Assembly (NCBI GenBank): GCA_042218325.1
Contig: JBDGRE010000001.1
Span: 132,356 to 196,355 of the forward strand
Origin: Candidatus Nanohaloarchaea archaeon
GTDB taxonomy: Archaea > Nanohalarchaeota > Nanosalinia > Nanosalinales > Nanosalinaceae
DNA: 64,000 nt
Reading direction: 5' to 3'
Positions 630 through 31,760 of the stretch are shown one piece after another. Under the pieces are notes generated by a model. That model was not told where the DNA came from. It did not search any database and worked only from the letters and a program-made list of their open reading frames with translations. The translations under genes and the position numbers were made by a program. Position 1 is the stretch's first letter; each line of letters starts with the position of its first letter.

Positions 630-666
630 CGATAGATAATTAAGACTCCAGAGAGCTATCTACGAT

Positions 667-2007
667 ATGGAAAGGTCCTCCGGTGCCTTTTTCGCTGTCT
701 TTATCCTGCTAATGGCGGCGGGTGCATCCGCGAGAACCACGTTCGGCACAGGTACCGGTGAACCGCTGCCTAACATCACATCGCTATCGATCTACGACGT
801 AACAGGGCTCTCCAGCAGCCAGAAAGAGACCGGTGGAACGCTGGAGGACTCTGGTATAAACGAGACGTTCTTGGTCAACCAGTCTGACTACGACCGCGTC
901 TACAGGTTCTCCTTCAGGATAAGGAACGACGGCGACACGACCTGGTATGTAAACGATACCTCGAGCGACGTGATGTTCCACGACGGCCTCGACACATCGT
1001 GGAGCGTCACCAAGATCTGGTACAACATCTCGCAGGACTACGACTCCGGAACCTTCAAATCGGGCAAGGTCGACTGGAACACCTCGAAGGGCGGCTCGCT
1101 ATCGCCGGGGGGAGTGATGTACGCCAAGTATCTGGTCAACATCTCGCTTTCCCAGTCATCTAGCTACTTCCAGCAGTTCAAGGTGAACGAGACGCTGGAG
1201 AACGCGGGCAGCTACGACTACCACATCCTGGACGCGAACAGGCTCGGCTTCCTGAACCTCACCCTGCAGGAGCCACCCAACGATACGGTGGTGGTTCAGA
1301 ACGAGACCTTTATCCAGAACGTATCTGTTACCTGTGAAAAGGGAGAATGCGGAACCGTAACGGTTTCTCCCCGTTACAATAAGTCATCGAGTGCGGACAC
1401 TCTGATACCCGGGTCCTCTGGAAATCCTTTCTATACAAATAGCTCGAACCTGCAGACCTGCGCTTCATCGCTTACGAAGGACGAGACTTGCTTCTCAACT
1501 TGGTTCGTCAACTCTACAGGAACCCTCGAATCTTGGCATCTTCTTGACGGAAATGCCTCTTCCTCCTACAGCCGGGTTCAACAAAACGACTCCGAGGACC
1601 ATCTGGTGCAGATAAATAAAGCGCTGATATTCGATCTCACCTGGAACACCAACCGTTTCGGAGTCCTCGACCCGGGTTCGCAGAACAACTCGGCGCTCGG
1701 CAACAATGACCTCGAGTACAACCTGACTGTCGACGAGGACTCGGAGCCGATAGACAAGCTCTGGATAAGGTCGACCGCTCTGGAGAACCAGACCTCCGGT
1801 TACTACATCAACGCTTCCAACATGAGCTACTCGACCACGAACGATATTGCGACCGAGAACTTCTTCTCGACCAGCTACGAGCTCGTCATGACCGATATCA
1901 GTCCGGGTACCATCATCAACTTCTTCTTCTGGATGGATGTCCCTACAGGCATCAAGAAAGGAGGCTACAACGGCACCTACTACTTCAAGGTGAACTCGAC
2001 CGGGTGA
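667..2007 (+). CDS. Secreted glycoprotein with C-terminal pilin-like beta-sandwich domain (putative tip/adhesin subunit)
   Basis: Sec signal peptide, many N-x-S/T sequons and Cys pairs. The C-terminal domain runs RFGVLDPG...FWMDVPTGIKKGGYNGTYYFKV. No TM anchor. Confidence 0.7.
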   Translation: MERSSGAFFAVFILLMAAGASARTTFGTGTGEPLPNITSLSIYDVTGLSSSQKETGGTLEDSGINETFLVNQSDYDRVYRFSFRIRNDGDTTWYVNDTSSDVMFHDGLDTSWSVTKIWYNISQDYDSGTFKSGKVDWNTSKGGSLSPGGVMYAKYLVNISLSQSSSYFQQFKVNETLENAGSYDYHILDANRLGFLNLTLQEPPNDTVVVQNETFIQNVSVTCEKGECGTVTVSPRYNKSSSADTLIPGSSGNPFYTNSSNLQTCASSLTKDETCFSTWFVNSTGTLESWHLLDGNASSSYSRVQQNDSEDHLVQINKALIFDLTWNTNRFGVLDPGSQNNSALGNNDLEYNLTVDEDSEPIDKLWIRSTALENQTSGYYINASNMSYSTTNDIATENFFSTSYELVMTDISPGTIINFFFWMDVPTGIKKGGYNGTYYFKVNSTG

Positions 2008-2011
2008 GAAA

Positions 2012-2701
2012 GTGAGGAAGCAGCTGTATCCTACAATTGTTCTCCTCCTGCTTCTCCCTGCTGCAGTTTCCTTCGGTTCCTTCCCGGTCCAGAGCCAGAA
2101 AACTACAGAAGACCTCAAGGCGAACTTCACCCTGGGCCTGATCAATCCGGGAAACGATACCGCAAGAGTAAACCTGCGCGCACGAGAATCACCTGATTAT
2201 GGTGTCGAATTTCCTGACTCGAGTTTCCTGCTCGAGCCAACACCGGTCTCCAGGAACCCACGGGGAAGCGGATGGTACCATCTCGGCGATGGAAGATACG
2301 TGAAGGTCAGGTACATGGAGTTCAGGGTGGAGGCCAGCGAGAACCGTAGCTCCAACAGCCTCTCGGTATCTGTAACCGTGGCCGCGTCCGCAGGTACCGA
2401 AGAGGGGCAGGGTTCCTCCAGCCGGGTTGTCTACGTTAGAGAGCACAGTTTCGACCTCGAAGTTGAGAGAAAGATCGAGGAAGACGGGGGAAGCAGCCCG
2501 GAGTGGATAGAGATAGAAGATGGGAACCGCTCAGGTATCCGGAGCAACCGGACTGCTGCCGGGAACGGTTCCGAGTCCGGGAAGAACTATAAACCGGGCG
2601 GAGAAAGTAAAAGCACGGGGGAATCGGGGGCTAACGGCACGACTTTCGTGCTGCTACTGGCGGTGTTGATGATGGCAGCTTACACTTACCGGGTGGCCTG
2701 A
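2012..2701 (+). CDS. Secreted Ig-like protein with C-terminal TM anchor
   Basis: Signal peptide, NFTLGLINPGN motif, G/S-rich linker and C-terminal FVLLLAVLMMAAY. Confidence 0.7.
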   Translation: MRKQLYPTIVLLLLLPAAVSFGSFPVQSQKTTEDLKANFTLGLINPGNDTARVNLRARESPDYGVEFPDSSFLLEPTPVSRNPRGSGWYHLGDGRYVKVRYMEFRVEASENRSSNSLSVSVTVAASAGTEEGQGSSSRVVYVREHSFDLEVERKIEEDGGSSPEWIEIEDGNRSGIRSNRTAAGNGSESGKNYKPGGESKSTGESGANGTTFVLLLAVLMMAAYTYRVA

Positions 2702-4546
2702 ATGGGCAGGAGACAGTACTTGCTGGTACTAGTTCCGGTGTTGCTCTTCACGGGCCCGGCCCTGACCGCGAGCTCGGATACCAGCGGCGATGGAACTGTG
2801 GGCGTGAGTATCGACAGGATCTGCCAGGTGGAGCAGAACGAGTTCGAACCACCGGGAGAAGAAACCTTCACGGTCGACAACAGCACGTACACACTTAACG
2901 CGATCGGAGTAAACGAGACAGGGGAATTCCTCTTCGATTTCTACAACACTGGCAACCGGAACGCAACAGTAACTGTCAACCTGACGGTTACTAACGAGAC
3001 CGATTTCTGGACTCCTGGAGAACCGAAGGGTAACTTCGTCAACCTCTCGAAGCAGGAAGAACTGGTCAAAGAATCATACGAGCCTTTCACGGTGCAGACC
3101 ACTTACTACATACCGCCGGGCGAGCTGGCCATCGGCAACACGTTCTACCTGATGACCAAGCTTTTCCAGGCCCAGTACCCGCCCGGCTTCTACGCAGGGA
3201 GGCTTAACATCAACTACACGTGCCCGAACCTGAACCGCAGCAAGAACATCTCTCGGCACGCCAACTTCTTGCTGGTCGAGTCCAAGATACTGACCGCGGG
3301 CGGAGAGGGCAACATAACAGGTGGAACTAAGGGAGACATACCTTCCGAGACACCTTTCCCGGCGCTGGCCAACTTCACGGGCAACCTTACGACGAACACA
3401 ACAGCTCCGAGGAGAGCCAACAAGTCAGGCAACTACACCTCGAACATCACCCGTCCCGAGGGGATCAGCGACCAGGGCAACTACTCCACCAACCAGACCG
3501 CCTACAGGGAGGACACGCCGCAGGGCGCGGAAGTGAACCAGACCTTCCCCGCGGACGCCAACAGGACAGGCGAAACATCGAACCAGACCGTCCAGCAGGA
3601 AGCGAACCGTACCGGCGGCCAGGGACAGACTGTACCGGGTGACAATCCTCAACCCGGTCGATCTCCAGAACCAAGGCCCCGTCTCCAGATAGACGTGGAA
3701 CCCTTCAAGAACGTTTACAGCGCCTCACCGGGCCAGTACGCTCCTGTCGCGCTTCAGGTCCAGAACCTCGGTGACACAGCGATACAGGACTTCCAGGTAA
3801 CCCCTTCGATAGGTGAGATAAGGCAGGGCTGGCAGGTGCGCTCCGCCAGCGTATCATCGATACCGGCGGGAGGGAACATCACGAGAGAGGTGTTCGTAAG
3901 ACCTCCAGCAGACGTGGCCACAGGGAAGTACGTTTCGCCGGTGGTCGCGGGCAACGGGACGGCCCGTTACGACCTCGACTACTTCACTGTCAAGGTGACC
4001 GAGCCGCCCGAGAGAAGCGCCCGTATATCGATACAGGAGTCTCCCAGCTCCGCCAGCCTGCCGACCAACTCGACCCGGAGGATACCTGTATTGGTAGAGA
4101 ACACTGGCAAGGTGCCGCTGACAGATGTCACCGCGAGGCTACAGAACGCGGAGAACTGCGCTGTCACGCGCTCCTCTACCGTGGACAGGGTGGATGTCAA
4201 CGAGACAGCTTCACTGAGCGTCGAGGTGGAGACAGCCTCCGAGGCCACGAGCTGTGACGCGCAGCTGATAGTTTCTTCCTCGGAGGGAGCCTACGCATTC
4301 GGAGATGTCCAGTTCTCGACCAGACCCGAGGGAGGTTTCATTCCTGTAAGGCAGCGCGTACCGTTCCTCGCTATAGCTTGGACGCTTGTACTTGCGGCCT
4401 ACGCTGTGCTGAAGAAACGCTATCAGCTTGAATCTGGTATCGTCAAGGCGCCGTTCGTGCTGCTGCTCACAGGAGAATCCGTCATCATCCTGTACCTCAT
4501 AGTGAACTACTACGGGTTCGTCAGCGTCGCCTTCCTGCCGTTCTGA
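2702..4546 (+). CDS. Membrane-anchored surface glycoprotein with CARDB/NEW3-like Ig domains
   Basis: Signal peptide, Ig-like motifs (VQNLGD, VENTGKVPLTDV, PPADVATGKY), a sequon-rich repeat stalk and two C-terminal TM helices. Confidence 0.75.
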   Translation: MGRRQYLLVLVPVLLFTGPALTASSDTSGDGTVGVSIDRICQVEQNEFEPPGEETFTVDNSTYTLNAIGVNETGEFLFDFYNTGNRNATVTVNLTVTNETDFWTPGEPKGNFVNLSKQEELVKESYEPFTVQTTYYIPPGELAIGNTFYLMTKLFQAQYPPGFYAGRLNINYTCPNLNRSKNISRHANFLLVESKILTAGGEGNITGGTKGDIPSETPFPALANFTGNLTTNTTAPRRANKSGNYTSNITRPEGISDQGNYSTNQTAYREDTPQGAEVNQTFPADANRTGETSNQTVQQEANRTGGQGQTVPGDNPQPGRSPEPRPRLQIDVEPFKNVYSASPGQYAPVALQVQNLGDTAIQDFQVTPSIGEIRQGWQVRSASVSSIPAGGNITREVFVRPPADVATGKYVSPVVAGNGTARYDLDYFTVKVTEPPERSARISIQESPSSASLPTNSTRRIPVLVENTGKVPLTDVTARLQNAENCAVTRSSTVDRVDVNETASLSVEVETASEATSCDAQLIVSSSEGAYAFGDVQFSTRPEGGFIPVRQRVPFLAIAWTLVLAAYAVLKKRYQLESGIVKAPFVLLLTGESVIILYLIVNYYGFVSVAFLPF

Positions 4547-5070
4547 CCCGCGAGCATCTCCACGCCGGAAAGGCTCACGGCCAACACAACCAGTATAAAG
4601 GCCAGGGAAACTGGCAGGGCCCAGCTCCTGCTGACTTCAGCTACGGACAGGAAGCTCTCCACGTCACCCTCGGAACCGATGGTGAGAAGTATCGACATCA
4701 GCATACCGGTTCCCGCCGCGGCGAGCGTATTGGCGCGGAAACTCTTCAACCTGCTGGCCGCCACGATAGCACCCCAGCCTGCCACGAGCGTGGAAAGGTA
4801 CCCCAGTGAGTAGAAGACGAGCAGGAACCCGTCGGATGGTGTGCATAAGGGCCGGACGATGGCGTGGGCCCCTCCCACGAAACTGAAACCTATCTCGGTG
4901 CTGTACGGGCACCCGATCAGCCACAGGGGCAGCACGTGGAAGAGTTCGTGTATGAACTGTCCTATCAACAGGAAGGATGCCAGGAACGTGGCTGACACGG
5001 TCACGTGGGAAAGTATCTTCCTGCGCTTCCGGGAGCTTTCAAGGTCTTTCAGGTGTTTCTCCGGCAGCAT
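4510..5070 (-). CDS. Small multi-TM protein with HExxH motif (M50-like/zincin intramembrane metallopeptidase candidate)
   Basis: FIHELFHV sits at the end of a TM helix, with a downstream GD (EGDV) and 4 hydrophobic segments. Confidence 0.6.
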   Translation of the reverse strand: MLPEKHLKDLESSRKRRKILSHVTVSATFLASFLLIGQFIHELFHVLPLWLIGCPYSTEIGFSFVGGAHAIVRPLCTPSDGFLLVFYSLGYLSTLVAGWGAIVAASRLKSFRANTLAAAGTGMLMSILLTIGSEGDVESFLSVAEVSRSWALPVSLAFILVVLAVSLSGVEMLAGQNGRKATLTNP

Positions 5071-6762
5071 CTATACCGCCTTCACGACCTTCTTCGCGGT
5101 TTCCACCATGGAATCTATCTCGTCCTCGTCTATGGTGCCGGCGTACTCGTCCTTTGCAAGTGCCCTGAAGAACTCGACCACCTCGTCGAGGTTCTTACCT
5201 TTCCTGCCCTCCAGCTTGTCCGCCAGCTCATTGTAGGTCATCTCCCGCTCTATCTCGAACTTGAACTCGAGGTAGCCTTTCAGTATGTGGGCTGTCTTTA
5301 TGGCGGCCTCCTTCTTCTCCAAGTCGCTGTATTCGTCAAGTAGCTGCAGCACTTTCTGCTTCCTGATATTCTTCTCCTCGCCTGAGCCGCCGCCCCTGCG
5401 GAATATCTCTCTCACCCGGTCTCCCACGCCGGCCACATGCCTGAGCTGGTCCCTGAGCCCTTCCCCGCTGTCCTCCTCTTCCTCTTCTTTCACGGCCCCC
5501 ATAAGCATCTGGAGGTCTTCCTCGGCCTCGGTCTCCATCTCTTCCCTGTCCTTGTCCTCCTCTTCCTCCTCAACAGTATCGGTGCTTCTTCTCTCCCGGG
5601 CTATCTTCTCGAGGTCCTCGAGACTGGCCTGGTTCAGGATGTCCTCGTCGAAGTCGTCCTCCAGTTCTTCTATCAGTTCCTCCCTCTTCTCCTTCTCCTG
5701 CCTTAGGCGTTCCAGCTCCTCGAGAGATACCTCCCGTAGCTGCTCATCAGGTATGTCGACCCCGAGGTCATCGGCTATCTCCCTCTTCTCCTCGAGTTCG
5801 CCGCCATCCTCTACCTCGCCCTCTTCGCTCTCTTCTTCCTCATTGGTCCCGTCTGTATCCCCATCGCCTTCGTCTCCGGGTTCCTCCCCGCTGTCTTCTT
5901 CCTCTTCCTCGCTGGACTGGTCTCCGGTCTCTCCCGGTGACTCTCCTCCGGGAGCCTCGTTACCGGGCCTGGTTTCCCCGGTGCTATCATCTCCGGGATC
6001 TTGGCCCCCGGTCCCCTGTGGTCCTGTCGACCCGGTTTCCCCTGTCTGCGAGGTTTCTCCTCCACCTGTTTCTTGCCCCCCTGTTTCCGCTTTATCCTCC
6101 TTTGCGCTGTCCTCAACCGATGTACCTTGTTCTCCCTCGCGGGATATCTCCCTCATGGCCTCCGAAAGCCTGCGGCTGCCGCCAGAGTTACTCCCATCTC
6201 CTGCGCCGCTTGCCGCGGTATCCATGTCGACCTGTTCTATATCCTGCTCGAGTTCGTGTATGTCCTGCTCGGTCTCGTGGACGTCCTCGGCCAGTTTTTT
6301 CTCCGCTCTCCGTTCATCAAGGAACTTTTTCGCGGTCTTCCTGTCCTTGAGCGATCTTTCGGCCTCGAGCAGTTCCCCGAGCTGCTCCCTGTCAAGCCTG
6401 TGGAACCTTACGAACTCCTTGAGCTCTTCCACGGTGCCCTTGACCGCCTCCATCATCTCGTTTCGGCCTACATCCTCGGGTGGTACAGGTTCCGCTATTT
6501 TCTCCACGTCCTCTATCTGCTTCATCGCGGCCTGTATCTCGTCTACGTCTTCCTTCGCTGTTTCGAGACCTTCCTTCAGGTCTTCATCATCTATCTGGTT
6601 CCTGAGAAAATTTTTGGCGGTCTTCCTGTTCTTGTGCGACTCTTCGGCGTCAAGCAGGTCGACAAGCATGTCGCGGTCAGGCTCGTTCTCCCTGACATAC
6701 TCCCTGAGGTCCTCGACTGTACCGTCAACGACTTCAAGTACTTCGAACTCGGTCTCCGCCAT
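5071..6762 (-). CDS. Highly acidic cytoplasmic protein with two N-terminal ~44-aa repeats and a DUF4129-like C-terminus
   Basis: Repeats GTVEDL...AEESHKNRKTAKNFL and GTVEEL...AERSLKDRKTAKKFL, an E/G-rich linker and C-terminal EMTYNEL...EYAG. Lies downstream of the vWA gene. Confidence 0.75.
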   Translation of the reverse strand: MAETEFEVLEVVDGTVEDLREYVRENEPDRDMLVDLLDAEESHKNRKTAKNFLRNQIDDEDLKEGLETAKEDVDEIQAAMKQIEDVEKIAEPVPPEDVGRNEMMEAVKGTVEELKEFVRFHRLDREQLGELLEAERSLKDRKTAKKFLDERRAEKKLAEDVHETEQDIHELEQDIEQVDMDTAASGAGDGSNSGGSRRLSEAMREISREGEQGTSVEDSAKEDKAETGGQETGGGETSQTGETGSTGPQGTGGQDPGDDSTGETRPGNEAPGGESPGETGDQSSEEEEEDSGEEPGDEGDGDTDGTNEEEESEEGEVEDGGELEEKREIADDLGVDIPDEQLREVSLEELERLRQEKEKREELIEELEDDFDEDILNQASLEDLEKIARERRSTDTVEEEEEDKDREEMETEAEEDLQMLMGAVKEEEEEDSGEGLRDQLRHVAGVGDRVREIFRRGGGSGEEKNIRKQKVLQLLDEYSDLEKKEAAIKTAHILKGYLEFKFEIEREMTYNELADKLEGRKGKNLDEVVEFFRALAKDEYAGTIDEDEIDSMVETAKKVVKAV

Positions 6763-6810
6763 CGCTTGAGTATTGTGACGCCTTAAATAAGGGTTTATGG
6801 CGCTTTCGGG

Positions 6811-7761
6811 TCAAGGCAGGATGCTGTAACGCGTGGTGCCCAGTATCCACTCCGCCAGCATCAGGGCGAGCGCAAGGAATATGAAGTAGATGGAGATATC
6901 CGTCCTCTGGGTCGACTTCTCGAAGCTGAGGAACGCTGATTCAAGCTCGGCGCGGTCGGTAACGGTCAGCAGCCGGCCTCCGGTCTTCTTCGCCGTCCTG
7001 TTCAGCTTTCCGGGGTTCAGGTTCGGGAACTCGGCGCGTGACGCGTTCTGGCCCTCCACGGTTCCGAACTGCTGCCCTCTTTCCTCTGTGCTCCCGATGC
7101 CTATAGCGGTAACGGTGACGTTCTGCTTCTGTGCGAACTGAATGGACTCGTTCAGCGAGCTGCCGACGTTGTTCCTGCCGTCGGTGACCAGTATCAGCCG
7201 CCGGGTCTCGTTGCTATCCATCAGCATGCTGGAGCCCGTGAATATGGCGTCTCCTATGGCTGTACCTGCGGCCTGACCCATCCCGATGTTCGAGATGCTC
7301 TCCTTCACAGCATCAGTATCAGGGGTGAGCTCCTGTTCTCTTTTGACGTCGCCCGAGAACGATATGACACCTATCTCCACGGAGTCGGACAGCCTGTTGA
7401 CGAACTGCCGGGAGACGTCCTTGGCGGCCTGCAACCTGTTCGGCTCGAAATCCGAAGTCAGCATAGAGCCGGAGGCATCTATCGCCACGACGTAATCGGA
7501 ACCGGTGGACGGTACCTCCCGGACGATGACAGGGTTGGATATACCGATTATCAACGCGGTAAGCGCCAGAAGACGGGCGACGAGTATGACGTTGCTCGAC
7601 TTGAGGAAGTTCTTGCCCGCGACTTTTTGTAATGTCTCGTAGTTCCCGAACTTCATCGCGCGCTGCTTTTTCTTCTTCTTGGCCCCGATGTAGAACAGTA
7701 TCGCCAGCCCGTTCACCAGGAACAGGATATTGGCGTACTGGTCGGTGAAGACGAGCTTCAT
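6811..7761 (-). CDS. BatA-like von Willebrand A domain membrane protein
   Basis: MIDAS DASGSM, GTAIGDAI and LVTDG motifs, with N- and C-terminal TM segments. Confidence 0.9.
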   Translation of the reverse strand: MKLVFTDQYANILFLVNGLAILFYIGAKKKKKQRAMKFGNYETLQKVAGKNFLKSSNVILVARLLALTALIIGISNPVIVREVPSTGSDYVVAIDASGSMLTSDFEPNRLQAAKDVSRQFVNRLSDSVEIGVISFSGDVKREQELTPDTDAVKESISNIGMGQAAGTAIGDAIFTGSSMLMDSNETRRLILVTDGRNNVGSSLNESIQFAQKQNVTVTAIGIGSTEERGQQFGTVEGQNASRAEFPNLNPGKLNRTAKKTGGRLLTVTDRAELESAFLSFEKSTQRTDISIYFIFLALALMLAEWILGTTRYSILP

Positions 7762-7873
7762 CGGTCGAAGTCACCTTCTATGCGACTTCTCCGTGAAGAT
7801 TTCCGGCCCAAATCTTCGACTAAAAACCTTCTCGCGGCGTGTTTTCTCAAGATGCTTTTTCGAGGAAAAACCA

Positions 7874-8776
7874 TCACCATTCACCCTGGTCCTGGTCGAA
7901 GAACTCGGCGAACTCGGCCGAGAAGTTGTCGCGGGTGTCGACCTTCATGAAGCTGGAGCCGCTGCCCTTGAGCTGTTCCTCGAGTTTTTCCTCCTGCTTC
8001 CGGGCCTCCTCGTTGAACTCTTCCCGGACTCGGTCCGTGTTAACCACCATCTCTCCGCCGCCCGAGGCCGACTCGAACCGGAAGTTGCCCGACTTCGGCA
8101 GCTCGTAATCCCGTTTATCTCTGACCATCACGCTCATGAAGTGCCGGAACTTCTTGTTCGCGAGCGTCACCTTGGTCTTCCAGTCGCCCTCGGTTTCAAG
8201 GAAGTCGGACACCAGGAATATCGCGGTGTTCTCCTTCACCTTTCCTATAACGTCGTTCATCGCGTCCTCGAGGTCGAACGTCCCGCCGTAGTTGTCGAAC
8301 TCGGAGAGCTCATCGAGGAAGCGGTCGTACTGTCTCGTACCTCCTGATGGCTCGAGGAACACGCTTTCCTCGCCCCACATCCCCATCCCGACGTCGATAC
8401 CAGCCTCGACTGACGCGTACGCTATCGCAGCGGTCACGATGGCCGCGTACTCTGACTTGAGTTTATCTGCGGTGCCGAACTCCATCGTGTCGGACACGTC
8501 GAGCATCACGAACGCGTCCATGTTCAGGTCCTCCTCGTACTGCTTCACGTAGAGGTCGGGCTTCCCCGCGCTGTTTTTCCAGTCGATACGTGAGGCGTCG
8601 TCGCTCGGCAGGTACTGCCTGAGGCCGGAGAACTCTACGCCGGAGGGCTGGAAGTGGCGCTGGTACTTCAGCACGAACCGGAAAAGGTTGGATATGCGTT
8701 TGACCTCCGCATCCATTTTGTCCCGGAGGTCTCTTCTCGAGATGAACTCCTCCTCCATCTCTTCAAGGTCTTCCAT
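7874..8776 (-). CDS. DUF58 family protein
   Basis: SGVEFSGLRQYLPSDDASRIDWK, LDVSDTM and LVSDFL motifs. Directly downstream of moxR. Confidence 0.9.
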   Translation of the reverse strand: MEDLEEMEEEFISRRDLRDKMDAEVKRISNLFRFVLKYQRHFQPSGVEFSGLRQYLPSDDASRIDWKNSAGKPDLYVKQYEEDLNMDAFVMLDVSDTMEFGTADKLKSEYAAIVTAAIAYASVEAGIDVGMGMWGEESVFLEPSGGTRQYDRFLDELSEFDNYGGTFDLEDAMNDVIGKVKENTAIFLVSDFLETEGDWKTKVTLANKKFRHFMSVMVRDKRDYELPKSGNFRFESASGGGEMVVNTDRVREEFNEEARKQEEKLEEQLKGSGSSFMKVDTRDNFSAEFAEFFDQDQGEW

Positions 8777-8777
8777 A

Positions 8778-9815: not shown

Positions 9816-9884
9816 TAAAAAGATTCCAACCAGGGGTTGTGCAGAAATCCTGAACTCTCATGTGCGTGTATGTTTCTTGTCAAG

Positions 9885-9903
9885 ATAGAAGAAAAAAAGG
9901 AAA
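9885..9903 (-). terminator. Putative oligo-U archaeal terminator after the 9929-11101 gene
   Basis: T-rich tract on the minus strand (TTTTTTTCTTCT) about 30 nt after the stop codon. Confidence 0.45.
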
Positions 9904-9928
9904 TGGAGGGTTCTACGAGCTAACTGCT

Positions 9929-11101
9929 CTATGCAGCGTTGCTCGTCGAGACTACTACTCTGAGGACTCCCTGTGAGACAACTCCCTGCGGGATTCCTCT
10001 CGGTACCATGACCCGGATACCAAGGTTGACTGCCTGGTTAGGGTCAAGCTGGTTGTTGCCAGCAATCAGGTACTGTGAGCGGTCTGCCGAACCGAAGTTC
10101 GCCAGGTCGCTGTAGTCTCCTGCCTCGACGTTGTACCGGGTCCTGATGGTGTGCGGCTTGTCGGTGTCCTGTTGACCGGAGTTACCTCCTGTGTCGCACT
10201 GCGTCAGGATGTCGTAGACACGAATCTGTCCGGATTCACTCGTGTCCTTAAGCGGTACGCCGTTCGTGTTGCTGTCGCTCCCGGCGCCAACGACACCGTA
10301 ATTGTTGCCGGCGTTGTTCGTGATGTTCTGGATGACGTAGTCGCGGCCGGGGATGGTGTTGTAACCTGCGTCTGTTCCTCCGTCAGGACCATTGCTTCCA
10401 TCCGTCGCCGTGAAGTCGACAGGAACAGTGTCCGTCGAGTTGTGCGGCTGCTTCGCGATCAGCAGTGTGTTGAACGTATTGGTGGAGTCACCGTTGCACG
10501 CTCCGTTACCTCCGACAGGGAGGGCCCAGAAGTACTCCTGGTCACCCATACGGAACCTGCCGATTGCTACCTCACTCGCGGATGTAGCGGTAGTACCTGA
10601 CACGTCGACGTAGTAGTCGCCGCTGTCAGGTGCGTGGATGTACTCCGGATTGAGGGAGTTGTTGTAGGCTCCGTAGTCCCTCCTGTTGACGTACGTCCAG
10701 TTGCCGGTGTCTCCCTGTAGAGGGGGAGAGTCAGAGGCCGCTGGCCGTATCTGGAGGAAGTTAGCTGAGTCGAAGCTTGAAGGGTTCGTCGAGCCGTAGA
10801 AAGCGCTCTGGGAAGTCGTCTGTGTCGCGTTCACCCAGACCCTTTCGATTACTCTCGAACCTACGTTCTCAAGCTCTACCGTCCCGAATCCTCTCTCCTC
10901 CTGGGTTTCGTCAGCTGTCTGTCCAGGGTTGAGGCCTGTGTACTTCAACCTCTGTGGGTGAACGTCTATCGCTACTTCGCTGCCGATAGTGACGTTCACT
11001 GTCGCATTTCTCTGCGAGCTGTCTGTTGCTGCTGTTACCGAGGATGTCATCCCTGTGGCAGCTACCAGAACGAGGAGTGCCGCAAAAATCTTGTTCTTCA
11101 T
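9929..11101 (-). CDS. Secreted surface protein, putative major subunit of a donor-strand-type filament
   Basis: Signal peptide, then ATVNVTI...IDV.P..LKYTGLNPG and ENVGS. Ends VMVPRGIPQGVVSQGVLRVVV with no TM anchor. Has a strong SD (GAGGTGA) and its own terminator. Confidence 0.7.
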   Translation of the reverse strand: MKNKIFAALLVLVAATGMTSSVTAATDSSQRNATVNVTIGSEVAIDVHPQRLKYTGLNPGQTADETQEERGFGTVELENVGSRVIERVWVNATQTTSQSAFYGSTNPSSFDSANFLQIRPAASDSPPLQGDTGNWTYVNRRDYGAYNNSLNPEYIHAPDSGDYYVDVSGTTATSASEVAIGRFRMGDQEYFWALPVGGNGACNGDSTNTFNTLLIAKQPHNSTDTVPVDFTATDGSNGPDGGTDAGYNTIPGRDYVIQNITNNAGNNYGVVGAGSDSNTNGVPLKDTSESGQIRVYDILTQCDTGGNSGQQDTDKPHTIRTRYNVEAGDYSDLANFGSADRSQYLIAGNNQLDPNQAVNLGIRVMVPRGIPQGVVSQGVLRVVVSTSNAA

Positions 11102-11418
11102 GTTGTCACCTCGTTTGTGTGGTTTTCGCTAGGTTTTGAAGATAAAACCAGCCCTATAGGGTTCTCAAATCGGGTAAGATGCTGTACAGCGTCCCCGTTA
11201 GCTGGTGAAGAATCATGAAAGTGAAAGCTATGACTAGCCGTGTCAACGCGAGATAGGCTCTCGCACGTGATTTTGGGGAATCTCATGATTGATACCTTCC
11301 ACTTGTCCCCCTCTCCCCCTTGTACGGCGTTTTAGGGAGCCTGTATAAAAAGGTTCGTGGACTCGTCGAGGCCCGTCTAAGATGTATAAAACAGCCTCTA
11401 CATATATTTTAACAGATT
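11102..11418. promoter_or_regulatory. Divergent promoter region with a long structured leader on the minus strand
   Basis: TTTTTATA on the minus strand at ~11344-11351 and TATAAAA on the plus strand at ~11385. Several hairpins/palindromes and a 62-codon upstream ORF (11098-11286). Confidence 0.5.
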
Positions 11419-12513
11419 ATGAGAAAGCTGTTTCTGGCCCTTTCCGTACTGGTTTTCTCGGCTTCTGCCGCTTCACAGTCTATAGGCGTGGCCCCCAGTG
11501 ATTACCAAATGCGGGATGTCAACCCGGGCGAAGAAGTAGACTTCACCGTCTACCTCTCTGTTTCGGGTACTTCCGAGAACTTCACTGTGAAACCGACTAT
11601 GAGTTCTCCGAGTTCCGGTTTCGTGTTCAATGACGAGGGTTTCATAGACGCTGATAGCTACTCGGAGCAGGAGGTGCAATCCTGGATAAACTGGGATAAA
11701 GAAAGCTTCAAGGTCAATCCCAAGACGTCCCAGACCTATACTCTTCCTAACGGCGCTCAGGTGGTGGCAGAGGGCAAGATGGAAGGAACCTTACAGGTCC
11801 CGTCCAGCGCGGAACCAGGATATCACTCCGTAGAGATAGGGATTTCACCACAGTTCCCTCGTGGCTCGGGGTTCGGGGCCTCGATTCTGGGGCTCGCGAG
11901 GATGGACTTCAGCTTCAGGGTACCGGGCCAGGCGGAGAGAAGCGTAGAGATATCTGATTTCTCGGCGCGCCGTGTCGCCGAGGACAGGGTCCAGTTCGTA
12001 TACACTATGGAAAACACAGGTACTGTGACAACAGGGGTCGTAGGCGGGAGTTTCGAGGTAATATCGCAGGGTCGCAGTATAGGTAGCGCTCAGGTCGGTT
12101 CGGCCACACTCTCTCCCGGCGAGGAGAGAAGAGTAGAAACCCTGTGGGTTAAGGACGGGCTTGAAGGGGGAAATTACCGGGTGAGAGGCTCCGCGGATTA
12201 CAGGACCGGCAAGGCTTTCTTCGATGAGACGGTCACGATAACGCAGGCTCCACGGGACCCGATACAGGTCGAAGAGCCGGATAACCAGGACAGGGATGAG
12301 CCTCAGCAGGCTTCTACACCTGTTCTTCTCGTGCTGGTCGCCTTCCTCGGTATAGGTTCCGTTCTCTACGCCTTTGGCTTGGATATGCTGTGGGCGTTCG
12401 TCATAGCCGGTGCAGCAGGAATCGCCATCTTTATAATAACAAGCGGGCTATCTCTCTACATGCTCCTGTTGATGGTTACAGGAGCAGGACTACTGGTATA
12501 TCTCAACTGGTGA
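11419..12513 (+). CDS. Secreted two-Ig-domain protein (DUF916/PapD-chaperone-like) with a three-TM C-terminal anchor
   Basis: Signal peptide, IGVAP...VNPGEEV...VPSSAEPGYH, a second domain with ENTGTV and LSPGEER, and a hydrophobic C-terminus. Confidence 0.65.
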   Translation: MRKLFLALSVLVFSASAASQSIGVAPSDYQMRDVNPGEEVDFTVYLSVSGTSENFTVKPTMSSPSSGFVFNDEGFIDADSYSEQEVQSWINWDKESFKVNPKTSQTYTLPNGAQVVAEGKMEGTLQVPSSAEPGYHSVEIGISPQFPRGSGFGASILGLARMDFSFRVPGQAERSVEISDFSARRVAEDRVQFVYTMENTGTVTTGVVGGSFEVISQGRSIGSAQVGSATLSPGEERRVETLWVKDGLEGGNYRVRGSADYRTGKAFFDETVTITQAPRDPIQVEEPDNQDRDEPQQASTPVLLVLVAFLGIGSVLYAFGLDMLWAFVIAGAAGIAIFIITSGLSLYMLLLMVTGAGLLVYLNW

Positions 12514-12986
12514 TTCGAATCGAAAGGAACACAGTGCTTGCGGTATCTGTCATAACTGCAAGCATCCTCGTTGGACTGGCACCTTTTGTAATAAAGGAGA
12601 CCTCTATCGAAGAGGTAACGGTAACTTTCAACAGCTCTGTCGACGTCCGTGATACAGGTCCAGCCAACATGACAAGTCTGGGTATCAACGCCGGCAAGAA
12701 CTTGAAGTTCGGCGAGATAGAGCAGAACGCCAACTATACAAAGTGGATCAACGTTGGTGTGAACGAGAGAAGCCGCGTGGAGATACGGAGCGAAGGGAAT
12801 ATATCGGAGCTCCTGCGCTACGATCGTGTCAGGTACATGAAGGGGCAGGGCCGGATCCCTGTCGAACTGTTCCCGCACACCACCGGTTACTACGAGGGCA
12901 AGGTCGTCCTGACCGTCTGGAGGCCCAGGAACAGGCTGGGCGAGCTGTATCTCGAGGCCTGGAAGAAGACCGAAGACGTGTTTTGA
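12510..12986 (+). CDS. N-terminally anchored beta-sandwich protein
   Basis: GTG start overlaps the upstream TGA. TM segment followed by LKFGEI...GYYEGKVVLTV. Confidence 0.65.
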   Translation: MIRIERNTVLAVSVITASILVGLAPFVIKETSIEEVTVTFNSSVDVRDTGPANMTSLGINAGKNLKFGEIEQNANYTKWINVGVNERSRVEIRSEGNISELLRYDRVRYMKGQGRIPVELFPHTTGYYEGKVVLTVWRPRNRLGELYLEAWKKTEDVF

Positions 12987-13021
12987 CAACCGGTTTAAAC
13001 CTGGCAGACAGGAATACCTGT

Positions 13022-13417
13022 ATGCGTAAAGGCCTGCTGTCTGTGGCGATAGTCCTGTTTCTTTCGTCCGTCACTGCCCAGGCTACAGGGGCTTTCTTGC
13101 ACAACGGCTCGCTGGAGGTCGAGGACTTTTCGGGTCTTGTGGAGGTCCAGCAGGGTGACCGGACAGAGTTCAACTGGACCAACGGGACGGTGAAGATATT
13201 CGACAGGGATGAGGGCCTGAACATGCCGACGGGTTACATACTGCTTATCCTGGCGTTCCTGCTCGTGGTCATCTACTCGGTGGACATCGATCCTTTCTGG
13301 ATAGCGATACTGCTCTTCATGGTGGCCTTCACTGCGGTAGTTTATTATCTCAAGTGGCCGAAATACGTCATACCTCTGATGCTTATCCTGGTAACGGTGG
13401 TGAAACACTACAGATGA
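13022..13417 (+). CDS. Small secreted protein with three-TM C-terminal anchor
   Basis: ATG 13022 (MRKGLLSVAIV) lies about 25 nt after TTTAAA. The C-terminus resembles that of 11419-12513. Confidence 0.7.
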   Translation: MRKGLLSVAIVLFLSSVTAQATGAFLHNGSLEVEDFSGLVEVQQGDRTEFNWTNGTVKIFDRDEGLNMPTGYILLILAFLLVVIYSVDIDPFWIAILLFMVAFTAVVYYLKWPKYVIPLMLILVTVVKHYR

Positions 13418-14184
13418 AATACCGAATAACTGTTATCGCGCTCCTGGCGCTGTTCATCGCTTCTCCAGCGGCCGCGCTGAGCTTCGACGTGTCGATAGGC
13501 GCTCTCGCAGATACAGAGGCGCATTTCGTCCAGTACCACGAGAACACCTCGGCGGTGCAGGATGTGAACGTATCCGTGGAGAACACCGGTTCGGTAGGAT
13601 GTGTCTACCGCCTCAAGGCAGAGTTCAGGTACCGCAACCAGACGCAGACCCGGTACTCGCGGCCCTATCCGCTGTTCCCGAACGAGATGGCGAACGCCCG
13701 GCTGCATTTCATACCGGAGAACTACACCGGGCCGGTGGAGGCATCGCTCTACTCAACCTACTGCGGCCAGCAGAAATCCGTGGAAAACATAACTTTCAGG
13801 TCCCTGAGGTCCAACACTGCTGAAAACAGTATCGAGTCCCGCGTGGTATCCGCGGACGAGGACTCCGCAACTGTAGAACTTGAAGAATCGGGCGGGCTGC
13901 TTGTCCCGCGCCAGACACCTCCTTACTGGAAGGCCTCCTCCGCCCGTATAAAGGAGGGCCGGGCCACGCTGCGGTACAGCCCGCCGATATTCACAAGGGA
14001 GTTGCTGAACTACACAGTCGTCAGGAACGGGTCGATAACTGGCTACACGACGGTCGACCTCGAAGTGGATAAGACCTACTGGGACCGGCTGCGCGAGAGG
14101 CTTCCCCGGATAATCGGCGTACTGCTCGGCTTTTCGCTGCTGCTGAACGCGAGACTGCTCCGCGACCGGTTCTCCGGTAATTAA
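13414..14184 (+). CDS. Secreted Ig-like protein with C-terminal TM
   Basis: ATGA overlap with the previous gene, signal peptide, VENTGSVGC motif and TM IIGVLLGFSLLL. Confidence 0.75.
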   Translation: MKYRITVIALLALFIASPAAALSFDVSIGALADTEAHFVQYHENTSAVQDVNVSVENTGSVGCVYRLKAEFRYRNQTQTRYSRPYPLFPNEMANARLHFIPENYTGPVEASLYSTYCGQQKSVENITFRSLRSNTAENSIESRVVSADEDSATVELEESGGLLVPRQTPPYWKASSARIKEGRATLRYSPPIFTRELLNYTVVRNGSITGYTTVDLEVDKTYWDRLRERLPRIIGVLLGFSLLLNARLLRDRFSGN

Positions 14185-14220
14185 AGCTTTAAAGCTCGGA
14201 AACACCAACTTTGGTTGTAG

Positions 14221-17208
14221 ATGACAGCGATGCCCTACTTTCTCGCCAGGTCAGTGATCGCCATCTCCGCTCTGATGCTTATCGGCGGGGCCTCCGCGGC
14301 ATCGCTCAACATAGAGGACGGCGACACGGTCATATGGAACAACTCCGACAGCGCCTCTGAGCTGACGCTCGACTGGAGTTCTGATACCGGTCTTGAGAAA
14401 GTAACTATCCGACATGAGTCTGGTAAGGCCCGGAACGTGACCATGGATTCGTATGATGTAACGCGTGGGATGGAGGCTCTGGGCGAGTACGAAGTCTACG
14501 GATGGTACAGCAACGGGAATATGACGAACAGGACAAATTCTGATAGTTTCTTCTTCGCAGGGATCAGGCCTGAGATCCTGAACCCGGACGACCATGACAT
14601 CGGCTACAGGAACCATTTCATGGGAGATGAGTCGAAGGGCGAGCTCTTCAAGGGCGAACCGGTAAGGCTGAATCTAAACGTGAAGGGTCTGGACGGAATC
14701 GAATCTGTAACGGATTACGAGGGTATGGAGAGCCTTGTCTACCAGAAGTCGAACTTCGATTTACCTTTAGTGATACCAAGTTACAGTAATCGACCTCTGG
14801 ATGCTGCACCTTTCGAATGGGAGGATCCGAGCGCGCCGAAGGAACCGAATATACTTCTTCACCCATACGTGCCTGCAGATATAACAGGAGGGAACAAAGA
14901 GATAACTACAACTGTGGAGTATAGCGGGCCCTACGGTGGGTTCTCGGAAAAGGTTTCGACGGATGAAGAGGCTCTTTATGTTACCGGCGTGAGAACGCTC
15001 GGCAAGCAACCTGAAGAAGATATCACGGAATCTCAGATAGGAGAAATATCGCTGCGTATATACGTTGAATCCAAGCACCGTAAACTGATCTCGGAGGGCA
15101 TGTTTGAGGCCCGGCTGGAGGGAAAGAACGGGGAGACTGTAGGCAGGAACGAGGCCAACGTCGATTTCTCCTTGACAGATGTTTCGGGCGAAAAAGGCGT
15201 TTACAGGTTAGAACTGGAAAAATTGCCTGATAAAAAACCCGATAGCGCCGAGTTCGACTTCGAAATCCTGTACGAAGACCCGCTATACTCCGGTCAGCAA
15301 CCGGTCGAGATAGCCTCCTACAACGTTTTCTCTGATTTCGTCAGATTCAGAGGCTATGTCTGGGATTCCCAGAAGCAACCGGTTGGCAGCAGTTTCACAG
15401 TTGATGGTAGAAGCTTCTCGACTAACGGTAACGGTTTTTTCCAGCAGAAGTTTGTACCGGGTGAGTACGATTTCAATATCAGCTTCAAGAAGGGAGGTAA
15501 GACCGCGTCCGTGAATCTTCATGATGTCGAGATGCAATCTCAATACAAACCTGGTAAGACAAAGATAAGGTATGAGTACGTGAATAATCCTTCGGGGGTC
15601 AGGGTTCCCGGCGTCAAACCCATGGACCTTGTTTCTTTCGTGTTCCGTAAACCTTTCGAGCAGACCGGGAGCACCGTCACAATCGACTACTCGGTTTCTG
15701 GTTCTGATCCTACAGAGGTGAGTGTGTTCAGTTGTGATAACTGGGCTATTTCGGACTCAAGATGTCTCTCCAGCTGGAAGAAGGTGGAGAAAACATCGTT
15801 CAGCCCGGGAGGAGGGTGGTCGGTCAGGGCGCCTGCAGAGACATTCGAGGCTAACTATAACGGTAGGCAAAAAGAGATAATGCGTTCGGCTTACGTCATC
15901 GGGACCCGTTCCGGTCTCCGGCTTAACAGCAACTTGAGGCTGGAGGGAACAACCGGTGGCCGGATAGTCGCGGGCAGCGAGCTGTCTGTGAGCGGGCAGA
16001 TACTGGCCGCGGGAGGCAAACAGGTCTCCGGCGTGGATGTACAGGTCGCCATGAAGGACGGCGGCGAGACAGTAAAGACCCTGACGGGTAAGACGGATGA
16101 TTCGGGTTCTTTCACGGTTTCAGGTGACGTGCCGGAGGAACCCGGCAACTTCACCCTTGAGCTGACGGCCTCGAAGAAGCCTTACGACACCTTTACGACA
16201 GAGAAAGATGGTGAGGTCTGGGTCTACAGGGAGAAAGAGCTGGAGTTGCGGAAGAAGGACAGCGGTCGCTGGACGCTTGAACCCGGGAAGAAAAGCAGCA
16301 GGACCGTGGTGGTGGAGAACACCGGACAGGTCAATATCGAGGATATCCAGCTCTCCGTGGCCGGTACCCGGAACATCAATCAGGACTACGTATCGCTCGC
16401 GACCGCCACCCTCGGGAGTTTATCGCCCGGTGAATCAAAGGAGGCGGAAGTCGTGTTCGACCTCCCGGACACCTGTCCCGGTAGCGGCTGCCCCGAGCTC
16501 TCTTCGAGCATCGATCTCCGGGTCACAGGCAGCCATGGAACTGCGGCAACCCTCAACCTTGGCCCGAAGGTAAGCACCGGCAGCGAGACCGGTGAAGATA
16601 GCACGACGAGTGAGAAGACCTCCGAGCAGAAAAACAGATCGGATAACGGTATGAGCTTCTCCACTCCGGAGATCCCGGGCGCGAAGGCCACGGGCCAGTT
16701 TCTCGCCGCCCAGAGCACGGTCAACATCGCTCTCGGCCTCATGTTCATCTTCCTGATGGTGCTGGCTGGCGCCCTCAAGAACAAGGACGATGACGACAGG
16801 ACAGTCAGGAGGAACGTAGTAAGAGGTAGCAATGGCGGAGGGTCACGCCCCGGCGTCCAGCCGCCACGGGTGTCACCGGCGCACCACGACAGCGACTCCG
16901 CCCCCCTCGACGGGCCGAAGACGGTGGAAACCGGCGGCGAGGAAACCGAAACAGGAGAAGTAGAGGAGGAAGAAGACGAGGATGAACAGGCGGCCGGGGA
17001 AGAGACCGGTGGGGAAGCCAGCGGGAAAGGCAAGGTTGACAAGCTCGCGGAGTCACTTACCGGGGAAGCAGATGAAGAGCAGGAAGAGGATGGCGAGAAC
17101 GGTGAGAGCTCAAGCGGTGGAGGGGAGGTTTCAGTCGAGTGCGATATCTGCGGTGAGGAGTTCGACACCGAGGCTGGCGTCAAGATACACAAGCAGACGG
17201 CCCATTAA
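14221..17208 (+). CDS. Large surface protein (multiple Ig/CARDB-like domains, TM, acidic tail, C-terminal C2H2 zinc finger)
   Basis: Signal peptide, VENTGQ...LSPGESK motif, TM at about aa 835-855 and terminal CDICGEEF...IHKQTAH. Confidence 0.8.
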   Translation: MTAMPYFLARSVIAISALMLIGGASAASLNIEDGDTVIWNNSDSASELTLDWSSDTGLEKVTIRHESGKARNVTMDSYDVTRGMEALGEYEVYGWYSNGNMTNRTNSDSFFFAGIRPEILNPDDHDIGYRNHFMGDESKGELFKGEPVRLNLNVKGLDGIESVTDYEGMESLVYQKSNFDLPLVIPSYSNRPLDAAPFEWEDPSAPKEPNILLHPYVPADITGGNKEITTTVEYSGPYGGFSEKVSTDEEALYVTGVRTLGKQPEEDITESQIGEISLRIYVESKHRKLISEGMFEARLEGKNGETVGRNEANVDFSLTDVSGEKGVYRLELEKLPDKKPDSAEFDFEILYEDPLYSGQQPVEIASYNVFSDFVRFRGYVWDSQKQPVGSSFTVDGRSFSTNGNGFFQQKFVPGEYDFNISFKKGGKTASVNLHDVEMQSQYKPGKTKIRYEYVNNPSGVRVPGVKPMDLVSFVFRKPFEQTGSTVTIDYSVSGSDPTEVSVFSCDNWAISDSRCLSSWKKVEKTSFSPGGGWSVRAPAETFEANYNGRQKEIMRSAYVIGTRSGLRLNSNLRLEGTTGGRIVAGSELSVSGQILAAGGKQVSGVDVQVAMKDGGETVKTLTGKTDDSGSFTVSGDVPEEPGNFTLELTASKKPYDTFTTEKDGEVWVYREKELELRKKDSGRWTLEPGKKSSRTVVVENTGQVNIEDIQLSVAGTRNINQDYVSLATATLGSLSPGESKEAEVVFDLPDTCPGSGCPELSSSIDLRVTGSHGTAATLNLGPKVSTGSETGEDSTTSEKTSEQKNRSDNGMSFSTPEIPGAKATGQFLAAQSTVNIALGLMFIFLMVLAGALKNKDDDDRTVRRNVVRGSNGGGSRPGVQPPRVSPAHHDSDSAPLDGPKTVETGGEETETGEVEEEEDEDEQAAGEETGGEASGKGKVDKLAESLTGEADEEQEEDGENGESSSGGGEVSVECDICGEEFDTEAGVKIHKQTAH

Positions 17209-17790: not shown

Positions 17791-17794
17791 TCTA

Positions 17795-18577: not shown

Positions 18578-18662
18578 GAACAGACAAGAATTTCGCTCAG
18601 ATGTTAATAAACCTGATGAGATGAACATTTGTTAAGCAAAGGTGGTTTAAAGTTTTCACTCC

Positions 18663-28811: not shown

Positions 28812-28891
28812 CTTAAGAGTTTTTTCTGGAGGCTCGAATAAAAAGTAGCCCGGCAAATCGTTTTTTATACCAGCGCCGGGAACACTGGAAC

Positions 28892-31717: not shown

Positions 31718-31760
31718 CAGAACAGTATAGTTTTAACTCCATCCGGTTTTAAAGACTGTT

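Follow-up and report, generated by a model that had tools for sequence, protein, structure and literature searches.

Does an island of ~18 kb in a nanohaloarchaeal genome encode a surface fibre that is assembled without an usher? The island occupies positions 189-18628 of the window, i.e. the whole stretch of 64,000 nucleotides that was analyzed (contig JBDGRE010000001.1, positions 132,356 to 196,355, assembly GCA_042218325.1). The host genome, G000, measures 1.07 Mb in 35 contigs and is 96% complete. According to their sources the nearest protein relatives belong to Candidatus Nanohaloarchaea, Nanosalina, Nanosalinarum, Nanohalobium and Nanohalovita, and the source names of homologues include cultivated nanohaloarchaeal co-cultures. 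An initial annotation of the letters had proposed an usher-less filament of donor-strand type linked to a MoxR-DUF58-vWA module. To the reading of the island as the coding locus of a surface fibre that needs no usher and is assembled through chaperone-guided donor-strand complementation and exchange we give a probability of about 0.58. The first part of this reading, in which a membrane-tethered chaperone (G11419) complements the immunoglobulin-like (Ig-like) core of a secreted anchorless subunit (F9929), is likely according to structure prediction; the second part, in which F9929 goes on to form a donor-strand fibre, has slightly better than even odds. As anticipated, no usher turned up: family PF00577 has no match in G000 at E <= 1. 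The features on which the argument turns are the following.

9929-11101, minus strand: F9929, secreted, 390 residues, anchorless, monocistronic, candidate major subunit
9947-9967, minus strand: last strand of F9929, residues 379-385, which pairs with the chaperone strand in the predicted complex
10985-11005, minus strand: putative N-terminal donor strand of F9929, residues 33-39 (ATVNVTI)
11102-11418: intergenic region from which F9929 and the G11419 operon diverge, with TATA-like boxes and the Shine-Dalgarno (SD) motif of F9929
11419-12513, plus strand: G11419, with a signal peptide, beta-sandwich domains 20-170 and 175-275, a linker and three transmembrane (TM) helices
11878-11907, plus strand: predicted donor strand of G11419, residues 154-163, behind a Gly-rich loop

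The G11419 ectodomain (residues 20-285, 61-row alignment) and mature F9929 (residues 25-390, 122 rows) were modelled as a pair. The interface score ipSAE was 0.83, 0.85 and 0.87, against 0.00 for the best of three controls; the score mark is attained by 58 of 80 solved complexes and by 2 of 110 mismatched pairs, counts which are only a rough guide here since our own alignments were supplied. The runs have at least 88% of their contacts in common, with a partner predicted local distance difference test (pLDDT) of at least 80. The lowest-error contacts between G11419 and F9929 (156-380, 158-382, 160-384 and 161-385) belong to a pairing of G11419 155-161 with F9929 379-385, which is parallel, since the register rises together along both chains. 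Residue 156 of G11419 also contacts residue 47 of F9929, so that the chaperone strand would lie between the first and last core strands of the subunit. Both G11419 domains line the interface, and the donated strand originates from a loop that is disordered in the model of G11419 alone and ordered in the complex. The initial annotation had suggested looking for strand insertion in this pair; strand complementation is what the model gave, and the donated strand is that of G11419. In this prediction a chaperone strand thus complements a pilin-type groove and runs parallel to its last strand, which supports donor-strand complementation, a strand of G11419 filling a gap in the F9929 core.

The candidate subunit was correctly described as anchorless, with its own SD and terminator: F9929 has no second hydrophobic segment, GGTGA lies 5 nt 5' of the ATG, and a T-run follows the stop. 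A TTTTATC element is found ~45 nt upstream. The AlphaFold2 model (22-sequence alignment, pLDDT 75.5, predicted template modelling score 0.77) places the Ig-like core at residues ~43-95 and ~355-385, split by an insertion of ~250 residues. ATVNVTI stands at the mature N-terminus; residues 1-37, which hold most of this strand, have pLDDT below 50, and the strand is left unpacked in the monomer model. In 122 sequences positions 35, 37 and 39 are hydrophobic in fractions of 0.98, 0.99 and 1.00 (V37 is V in 111 of them), and positions 34, 36, 38 and 40 in 0.03 or less. The strand follows a variable acidic stretch and precedes the first core strand, I45-D46-V47, and the invariant P49. Being strongly conserved, amphipathic, near the mature N-terminus and unplaced by the monomer model, it has the look of a donor strand, which is no proof that it acts as one. 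The family is large (312 clusters at 50% identity for E <= 1e-3, 191 for E <= 1e-30), and tandem F9929 paralogues occur in five genomes. Of 22 homologues at least 90% conserve C202 and C302, both in the insertion domain, which possibly form a disulfide. A phmmer search of the PDB sequences with F9929 gave 0 matches. Foldseek rows for a copper amine oxidase and an adenovirus fibre (TM score 0.1) were discarded as meaningless.

For G11419, the candidate tethered chaperone, the AlphaFold2 model (13 sequences, pLDDT 79) consists of two beta domains, a disordered linker and three TM helices (302-363). Loop 149-156 is disordered in this monomer model (pLDDT below 50), and position 158, a Gly here, is G, A or S in 60 of 61 sequences. 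The three best Foldseek matches in the PDB are all WxLIP of Enterococcus faecium: 9i25_C (1e-10), an entry described as WxLIP "bound to long WxL", 9i1y_A (1.8e-10) and 9i1y_B (1.9e-09). They are followed by many two-Ig-domain proteins at ~1e-8, and chaperones of chaperone-usher systems are found among the matches (FimC 7.4e-8, CsuC 1.8e-7, CupB2 4.1e-7). Comparison with VIA gave Z 12.5 (9i25_C) and 12.3 for WxLIP, with 219-223 residues (of 251 for 9i25_C) aligned over both domains at a root-mean-square deviation (rmsd) of 7.0-7.5; Z 9.0-9.3 for FimC, Caf1M and SfaE (9.3 for the first two), again over both domains, at rmsd ~7. For further matches with two domains, of transglutaminase and RbmA type, the rmsd is 12-16. 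With its two beta domains and C-terminal membrane anchor, modelled G11419 has the characters of the WxLIP chaperone fold. The TM region is itself conserved (MYxFExDPxWI) and for this reason may be more than an anchor. Two other leads were set aside: matches of the G11419 profile to engineered ETV6 repeat fusions among PDB sequences are spurious, and a weak PF06030 match on contig C4 of G000 belongs to an ordinary multi-CARDB surface protein and is no chaperone.

These two genes belong to an island of four transcription units between 189 and 18628. Unit 1 (plus strand, starts abutting stops) is g0189-A667-B2012-C2702; unit 2 (minus strand) is MoxR-DUF58-vWA-E5071-D4510; unit 3 (minus strand) is F9929 by itself; and unit 4 (plus strand, with stop/start overlaps) is G11419-H12510-I13022-J13414-K14221. 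Downstream of unit 4 come a DUF4202 gene and then a gene for a MinD/ParA-like ATPase, possibly part of the conserved neighbourhood. The remaining products are as follows.

189-629, plus strand: g0189, small protein with two hydrophobic segments (hydropathy), left edge of the island
667-2007, plus strand: A667, secreted, 446 residues, 24 N-glycosylation sequons
2012-2701, plus strand: B2012, with a signal peptide, a beta domain of ~140 residues, a low-complexity linker and a C-terminal TM segment
2702-4546, plus strand: C2702, with a signal peptide, a V-x-V-x-V/I strand, CARDB-like domains, two C-terminal TM segments and 26 sequons
4510-5070, minus strand: D4510, polytopic membrane protein (hydropathy), last gene of the MoxR operon
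5071-6762, minus strand: E5071, cytoplasmic, 563 residues, 32% Asp plus Glu
6811-7761, minus strand: BatA-like vWA membrane protein, with two N-terminal TM segments, a vWA domain and a C-terminal TM segment
7874-8776, minus strand: DUF58 protein (Pfam DUF58, 4.2e-39)
8778-9815, minus strand: MoxR AAA+ ATPase, island copy (Pfam AAA_3, 3.3e-58)
12510-12986, plus strand: H12510, with an N-terminal TM segment and a beta domain of ~125 residues
13022-13417, plus strand: I13022, small protein whose TM part is like the TM region of G11419
13414-14184, plus strand: J13414, with a signal peptide, a mature N-terminal L-x-F-x-V-x-I, beta domains and a short C-terminal hydrophobic segment
14221-17208, plus strand: K14221, surface protein of 995 residues with CarboxypepD_reg/CARDB-like domains, a TM segment at 834-852 and an acidic cytoplasmic tail
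17795-18628, minus strand: MinD/ParA-like ATPase (Pfam ParA, 9.1e-22), right edge of the island

The inheritance of these genes was followed by profile searches for their presence or absence in 70 genomes of the phylum. Matches were obtained for F9929 in 33 genomes, G11419 in 34 and J13414 in 35. F9929 and G11419 occur together in 32 genomes, and 35 have neither; G11419 occurs without F9929 in two genomes, at contig ends in both (G012, G050), and F9929 without G11419 in one (G021), as a 108-residue frame which is a fragment. Among relatives the island is inherited, present or absent, as a block. In the island-free single-contig genomes (G002, G007, G011 and G058) the 20 kb beside the PPS gene contain no island gene at all, and G016 is only seemingly negative, its contig ending inside MoxR. 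F9929 as the universal surface-layer (S-layer) protein of the family was rejected, four complete genomes being without it. All 12 compared loci, as far as they extend, share one gene order between A667 and the PPS gene, and G11419 adjoins F9929 in each. The initial annotation had made its proposal depend on synteny among relatives, and both the kept order and the co-inheritance agree with it. In a distant family (f4) G-like genes are found in five of seven loci; four of these five have a MinD-like gene within 3 kb of the G11419-like one, and three to four a K14221-like gene. One contig of this family (C52 of G044) has G-, J- and F-like genes inside 3 kb, in altered order. The core that stays together consists of the chaperone-like, subunit-like, J-like, K-like and MinD-like genes.

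What would the other surface proteins contribute? A Sec-type hydrophobic N-terminus is present in nine open reading frames (ORFs) of 667-17208 (A667, B2012, C2702, F9929, G11419, H12510, I13022, J13414 and K14221), in keeping with the secreted beta-rich proteins initially seen there; none looks like a class III signal, in line with the initial claim, on a judgement by eye only. By hydropathy F9929 and A667 have an N-terminal hydrophobic segment only, C-terminal TM segments are found in B2012, C2702, G11419, I13022 and K14221, and the single one of H12510 is N-terminal. Pfam and NCBIfam gave nothing for F9929, A667, B2012, H12510, I13022 and J13414, and across the island surface proteins weak matches of CARDB, NEW3/NPCBM_assoc and CarboxypepD_reg type only.

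A domain frame common to several of these proteins had been described, a description which profile comparison confirmed in part. Family alignments were built from the 12 related loci, each chosen for its F9929 match, and compared by hhalign with and without signal peptides. With them several island pairs score well, much of the signal being the signal peptides themselves; without them most pair matches fade. Two segments remain for A667, F9929 28-93 against A667 305-370 (87.8%) and F9929 351-387 against A667 410-445 (85%), and the C-terminal ~140 residues of A667 (~305-446) are accordingly a homologue of the F9929 core, uninterrupted by the ~250-residue insertion. The F9929-type domain attributed to the C-terminus of A667 is thereby upheld. 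H12510, J13414 and C2702 all stay at 26% or less against F9929, and H12510, announced as carrying this domain behind a TM segment, was rejected as a clear F9929-type protein, no significant profile match being left once the TM segment was removed; its gene is kept in 11 of the 12 loci. The mid regions of C2702 and K14221, both CARDB-like, match each other at 92%.

A667 is a candidate tip adhesin or decorated subunit. No named family was found for its part 24-300; Atlas gave leads only, at 0.81-0.86, to generic Ig-like families. Its V314-Q-I316, which aligns with the N-terminal strand of F9929, sits between the N-terminal part and the core, a layout like that of PamA and PamB (see below), so that A667 may be a decorated subunit and not a tip. 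A homologue is found in nine of the 12 loci, the other three stopping short of the position. C2702 is a candidate membrane base: as claimed, it begins past its signal peptide with a similar strand (GTVGVSI), in which V33-x-V35-x-I37 follows a short polar stretch, and it ends in two TM segments (553-571 and 583-601 by hydropathy). V33, V35 and I37 are hydrophobic in 1.0, 0.9 and 0.89 of family rows, and Pfam finds CARDB at 1.2e-05. J13414, a candidate terminator or anchor, has L-x-F-x-V-x-I immediately past the cleavage site, and all 12 sequences carry hydrophobic residues at F24, V26 and I28; its C-terminal hydrophobic segment is short, under the 19-residue hydropathy threshold, and its C63 and C117 are invariant. 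B2012 possibly acts as a second tethered chaperone, a weak case: against G11419 1-175 it scores 94.7% with signal peptides and 24% without. Of the two tethered chaperones of DUF916/PapD type initially proposed, G11419 thus stands by fold (Foldseek, VIA) and not by sequence, and B2012 stays weak.

The two-TM part of I13022 matches the G11419 profile at E 1.3e-9 (model positions 266-364), and its blastp matches fall in the C-terminal region of G11419 homologues; small I13022-like ORFs stand behind the chaperone gene in G003, G006 and G057. K14221, with weak Pfam matches, ends in a 143-residue acidic cytoplasmic tail (residues 853-995) with a conserved C2H2-like motif at its end, and the last 22-23 residues keep 48-64% identity even where the rest is undetectable (L013, L018). 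In the distant family K-like and MinD-like genes again neighbour the chaperone-like gene, a hint that a cytoplasmic partner exists. In E5071, for which no Pfam family was found and whose position is kept in 12 of 12 loci, an N-terminal motif of ~40 residues is duplicated and the C-terminal domain is conserved. For D4510, kept in seven loci, and for g0189 Pfam gave nothing above cut-off; g0189 has a homologue at the same position in six of the 12 loci, several of the others stopping short of it.

From these elements the following assembly can be proposed. F9929, to judge from its signal peptide, would be exported by Sec with a core short of its final strand, and on the outer face of the membrane the gap would be filled by residues 154-163 of G11419, as in the predicted complex, G11419 remaining tethered through its three TM helices. 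The free N-terminal strand of the next F9929 would then displace the chaperone strand, joining subunits head to tail. A667, whose F9929-type core stands behind a glycosylated N-terminal part, would be a distal adhesin or a decorated subunit. J13414, C2702 or both, with their N-terminal strands and C-terminal hydrophobic segments, may end and anchor the fibre, and B2012 could perhaps be a second chaperone.

A part in this assembly for MoxR-DUF58-vWA, the module named in the initial annotation, is unlikely. The three genes are indeed present, adjacent on the minus strand at 6811-9815 as one Bat-like operon; the vWA protein matches VWA_2 (2e-19) and BatA (9.4e-05). MoxR orthologues of the island are 68-88% identical, and island-free genomes hold only a paralogue at 44-48%. 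G000 has a second MoxR-DUF58 pair on contig C2 (~27069-28509), whose MoxR shares 45.6% identity with that of the island; island-free genomes retain this second copy as well. The module adjoins F9929 in all 12 loci, with two departures. In L022 (G013, 79% complete with 7% contamination) DUF58 and MoxR are reduced to remnants of 25 and 31 residues (8536-9461) beside intact F9929- and G11419-like genes, the G11419 profile match lying inside an open frame of 2399 residues; the locus may be a naturally occurring example of surface genes that lack the MoxR pair. In L016 (G001, of the same genus) MoxR is in two pieces ~1.6 kb apart (5002-7806), whose query ranges, 1-228 and 179-345, overlap, which suggests an insertion or a duplication in the gene. 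No match to MoxR, DUF58 or vWA was found in the seven distant-family loci, on contigs of only 4.9-18 kb. The trio is linked to the island only inside the window's own family and may not belong to the core.

Outside the island, a type IV pilus-like locus lies at 26977-32705, separate from the island genes, as had been stated. It comprises a T2SSF/PilC-like protein (26977-28272, minus strand), a T2SSE/PilB-like ATPase (29209-30825, minus strand), a TrmB-like helix-turn-helix protein (30818-31717, minus strand) and a prepilin peptidase A24 (31761-32705, plus strand). For the two large ORFs at 23271-26409 Pfam gave no family, and 19215-21719 encodes a phosphoenolpyruvate synthase/pyruvate phosphate dikinase-type enzyme fused to a C-terminal DUF2582 winged-helix domain.

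Which known systems does the island resemble? Two usher-less strand-exchange pili with membrane-anchored chaperones are described in 2026 preprints: Elr/WxL in Bacillota (bioRxiv 10.64898/2026.10.17.759780) and Pam in bacteria of the Candidate Phyla Radiation (CPR; PMC13278184). The Elr authors state that 4,698 genera were screened and that their system is confined to Bacillota (bioRxiv 10.64898/2026.10.17.759780), and Pam pilins are reported to be exclusive to CPR bacteria (PMC13278184). Elr/WxL, known from Enterococcus faecalis and other Bacillota, is usher-less like the island, and the preprint describes further common points. Its chaperone has, as G11419, two beta domains, a C-terminal membrane anchor and a strand parallel to the last one of the subunit; its pilin has an N-terminal donor strand of ~15 residues with alternating small and hydrophobic positions, to which that of F9929 can be likened; and its adhesin bears the pilin-type domain C-terminally, as A667 does. 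In ElrE-ElrD and in chaperone-usher systems the chaperone strand is described as lying parallel with the subunit's C-terminal strand and the incoming pilin strand as antiparallel (bioRxiv 10.64898/2026.10.17.759780). WxLIP is also the closest structural match of G11419.

The differences from Elr/WxL are that the WxL, DUF916 and DUF3324 sequence models find nothing that passes here, that the F9929 core is split by its long insertion, and that the host belongs to the archaea. Lacking peptidoglycan, it would not rely on LPxTG/sortase anchoring, and the fibre would be anchored through TM proteins instead; the candidate anchors do carry TM or hydrophobic C-termini by hydropathy.

Pam belongs like the island to an ultra-small single-membrane episymbiont (Ca. 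Mycosynbacter amalyticus), and the likeness concerns the described architecture only. It has two membrane-anchored FimC/PapD-like chaperones and pilins with truncated Ig-like domains; PamA and PamB, with an N-terminal domain, a linker strand and, at the C-terminus, a truncated Ig domain, resemble A667. The terminator PamR is described as combining an additional strand at the N-terminus with a TM helix at the C-terminus (PMC13278184), which is the architecture of J13414 and C2702. The island adds MoxR-DUF58-vWA and the MinD-like ATPase to what is found in Pam. Chaperone-usher pili (Fim, Pap, Caf1, Csu) have a two-domain boomerang chaperone, of which FimC, Caf1M and SfaE align over both G11419 domains, and a parallel chaperone strand and a subunit N-terminal extension as in G11419/F9929; the island differs from them in that there is no outer membrane and the chaperone is tethered instead of soluble. 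In every modelled feature the island resembles the Elr and Pam systems, yet it falls outside their sequence definitions, and we regard it as a probable archaeal analogue of these pili.

Several results weigh against the reading of the island as a chaperone-assembled fibre. By sequence, WxL (PF13731) and PapD_N (PF00345) were not found in G000 at E <= 1, and F9929 and A667 have no Pfam match at E <= 0.1, the only trace of WxL being an Atlas lead at 0.78. WxLIP_HBD (PF11797, DUF3324) stays below its cut-off for G11419 (17.5 against 28.9 bits; 3 of 13 members matched, best 1.6e-4), WxLIP_PGBD (PF06030, DUF916) does not match it, and hmmsearch of the PDB sequences with the G11419 profile recovered no WxLIP. 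H12510 and B2012 lose any significant likeness to F9929 or G11419 once signal peptides or TM segments are removed. By structure, Foldseek found nothing for the F9929 model at E <= 0.001; in VIA its Ig-like sandwich (N- plus C-terminal segments) meets a generic mix of MSP-, PapD-, pilin- and TasA-like folds at Z 5-7.5 (best 7.5, TLP-1b 7.1, WxLIP 6.6, FimA 6.5, TasA 5.9, bundling pilus ABP 5.5; PapA is also among the matches), weak values which all lie inside the tool's stated noise band. The fold comparison suggested by the initial annotation brings G11419 close to WxLIP and gives F9929 these weak generic matches only. The controls of the complex were unrelated proteins and included no other Ig-like proteins of the island, and the predictor may be drawing on chaperone-pilin complexes that have already been solved. 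G11419 has three TM helices against a single one in the Elr and Pam chaperones. Finally, the 12 compared loci were selected by an F9929 match, kin genomes are not independent and adjacent genes co-occur when an island is lost whole, so that co-inheritance shows a module and not a mechanism.

The alternative that survives best, improbable though far from negligible, makes G11419 a permanent anchor: F9929 would be held by stable complementation, as a coat, an S-layer-like layer or a monomeric adhesin, and no fibre would form. The predicted complex fits this arrangement equally well, F9929 itself has neither a TM segment nor another anchor, and three conserved TM helices look like more than a temporary tether. 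It would leave without a role the free V-x-V-x-V strand conserved in 122 sequences, a strand of a kind that J13414 and C2702 bear as well; tandem F9929 paralogues, present in some genomes, are a feature of pilus loci; and the four complete genomes without F9929 speak against a universal S-layer protein of the family.

Less probable still is a set of ordinary CARDB/NEW3-type surface glycoproteins standing beside an unrelated MoxR-DUF58-BatA operon, in which case the common frame would be generic and the complex a meaningless edge-to-edge beta augmentation. The weak CARDB, NPCBM_assoc and CarboxypepD_reg matches, the loss of most profile pair matches without signal peptides, the generic Ig leads of A667 and the F9929 fold matches below Z 8 are what one would then see. 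Such an explanation has to accommodate a complex at 0.85 against 0.00, with specific ordered contacts made through the one disordered loop of G11419, as well as WxLIP as the top match over both G11419 domains and the chaperone-, subunit- and J-like genes found together in a distant family despite rearrangement.

That F9929 forms a chaperone-free fibre like TasA, bundling pili, threads or cannulae, with G11419 unrelated to assembly, is very improbable: the alignments with TLP-1b, TasA and the bundling pilus (Z 7.1, 5.9 and 5.5 over 131-145 residues) fall within the noise band, F9929 has no Pfam match at E <= 0.1 and none to Peptidase_M73, and the chaperone-subunit prediction is strong and gene co-occurrence strict, even if a passage of the Elr preprint calls archaeal strand-donation filaments chaperone-free.

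The archaeal filaments themselves invite the last comparison. Threads, bundling pili (AbpA, TasA-like) and cannulae have, as proposed here, Sec-exported Ig-like or beta-sandwich subunits and a donated strand; unlike the island they are described as chaperone-free. F9929 has only a weak structural likeness to TasA and ABP (Z 5.9 and 5.5), and with no Pfam (E <= 0.1) or NCBIfam family it has no match to the TasA-family Peptidase_M73. The Discussion of the Elr preprint has archaeal strand-donation pili assemble without chaperone or usher (bioRxiv 10.64898/2026.10.17.759780). A 2022 paper on nanohaloarchaeal genomics discusses, in its accessible part, type IV pili and unnamed secreted hypothetical proteins. 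In the literature covered, which was incomplete and did not include the preprint supplements, we found neither an account of this cluster nor one of an archaeal strand-exchange fibre assembled with a chaperone. That the fibre read from this island would be the first of its kind known from Archaea, and form a third branch next to Elr/WxL in Bacillota and Pam in CPR bacteria, is a tentative proposition, for which the odds are a little short of even.

If it is, the assembly principle would be either ancient and spanning both domains, or repeatedly reached by ultra-small single-membrane symbionts, and the MinD-like ATPase, the zinc-finger tail of K14221 and MoxR-vWA might add a cytoplasmic control absent from the bacterial systems. 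The route by way of a membrane-anchored chaperone has been reported only in bacteria; with an archaeal counterpart in a DPANN symbiont it would span the two domains. About nine "hypothetical" proteins in about half of the sampled genomes of the phylum would also receive a role, and there would be a concrete candidate for the contact of nanohaloarchaea with their haloarchaeal hosts.

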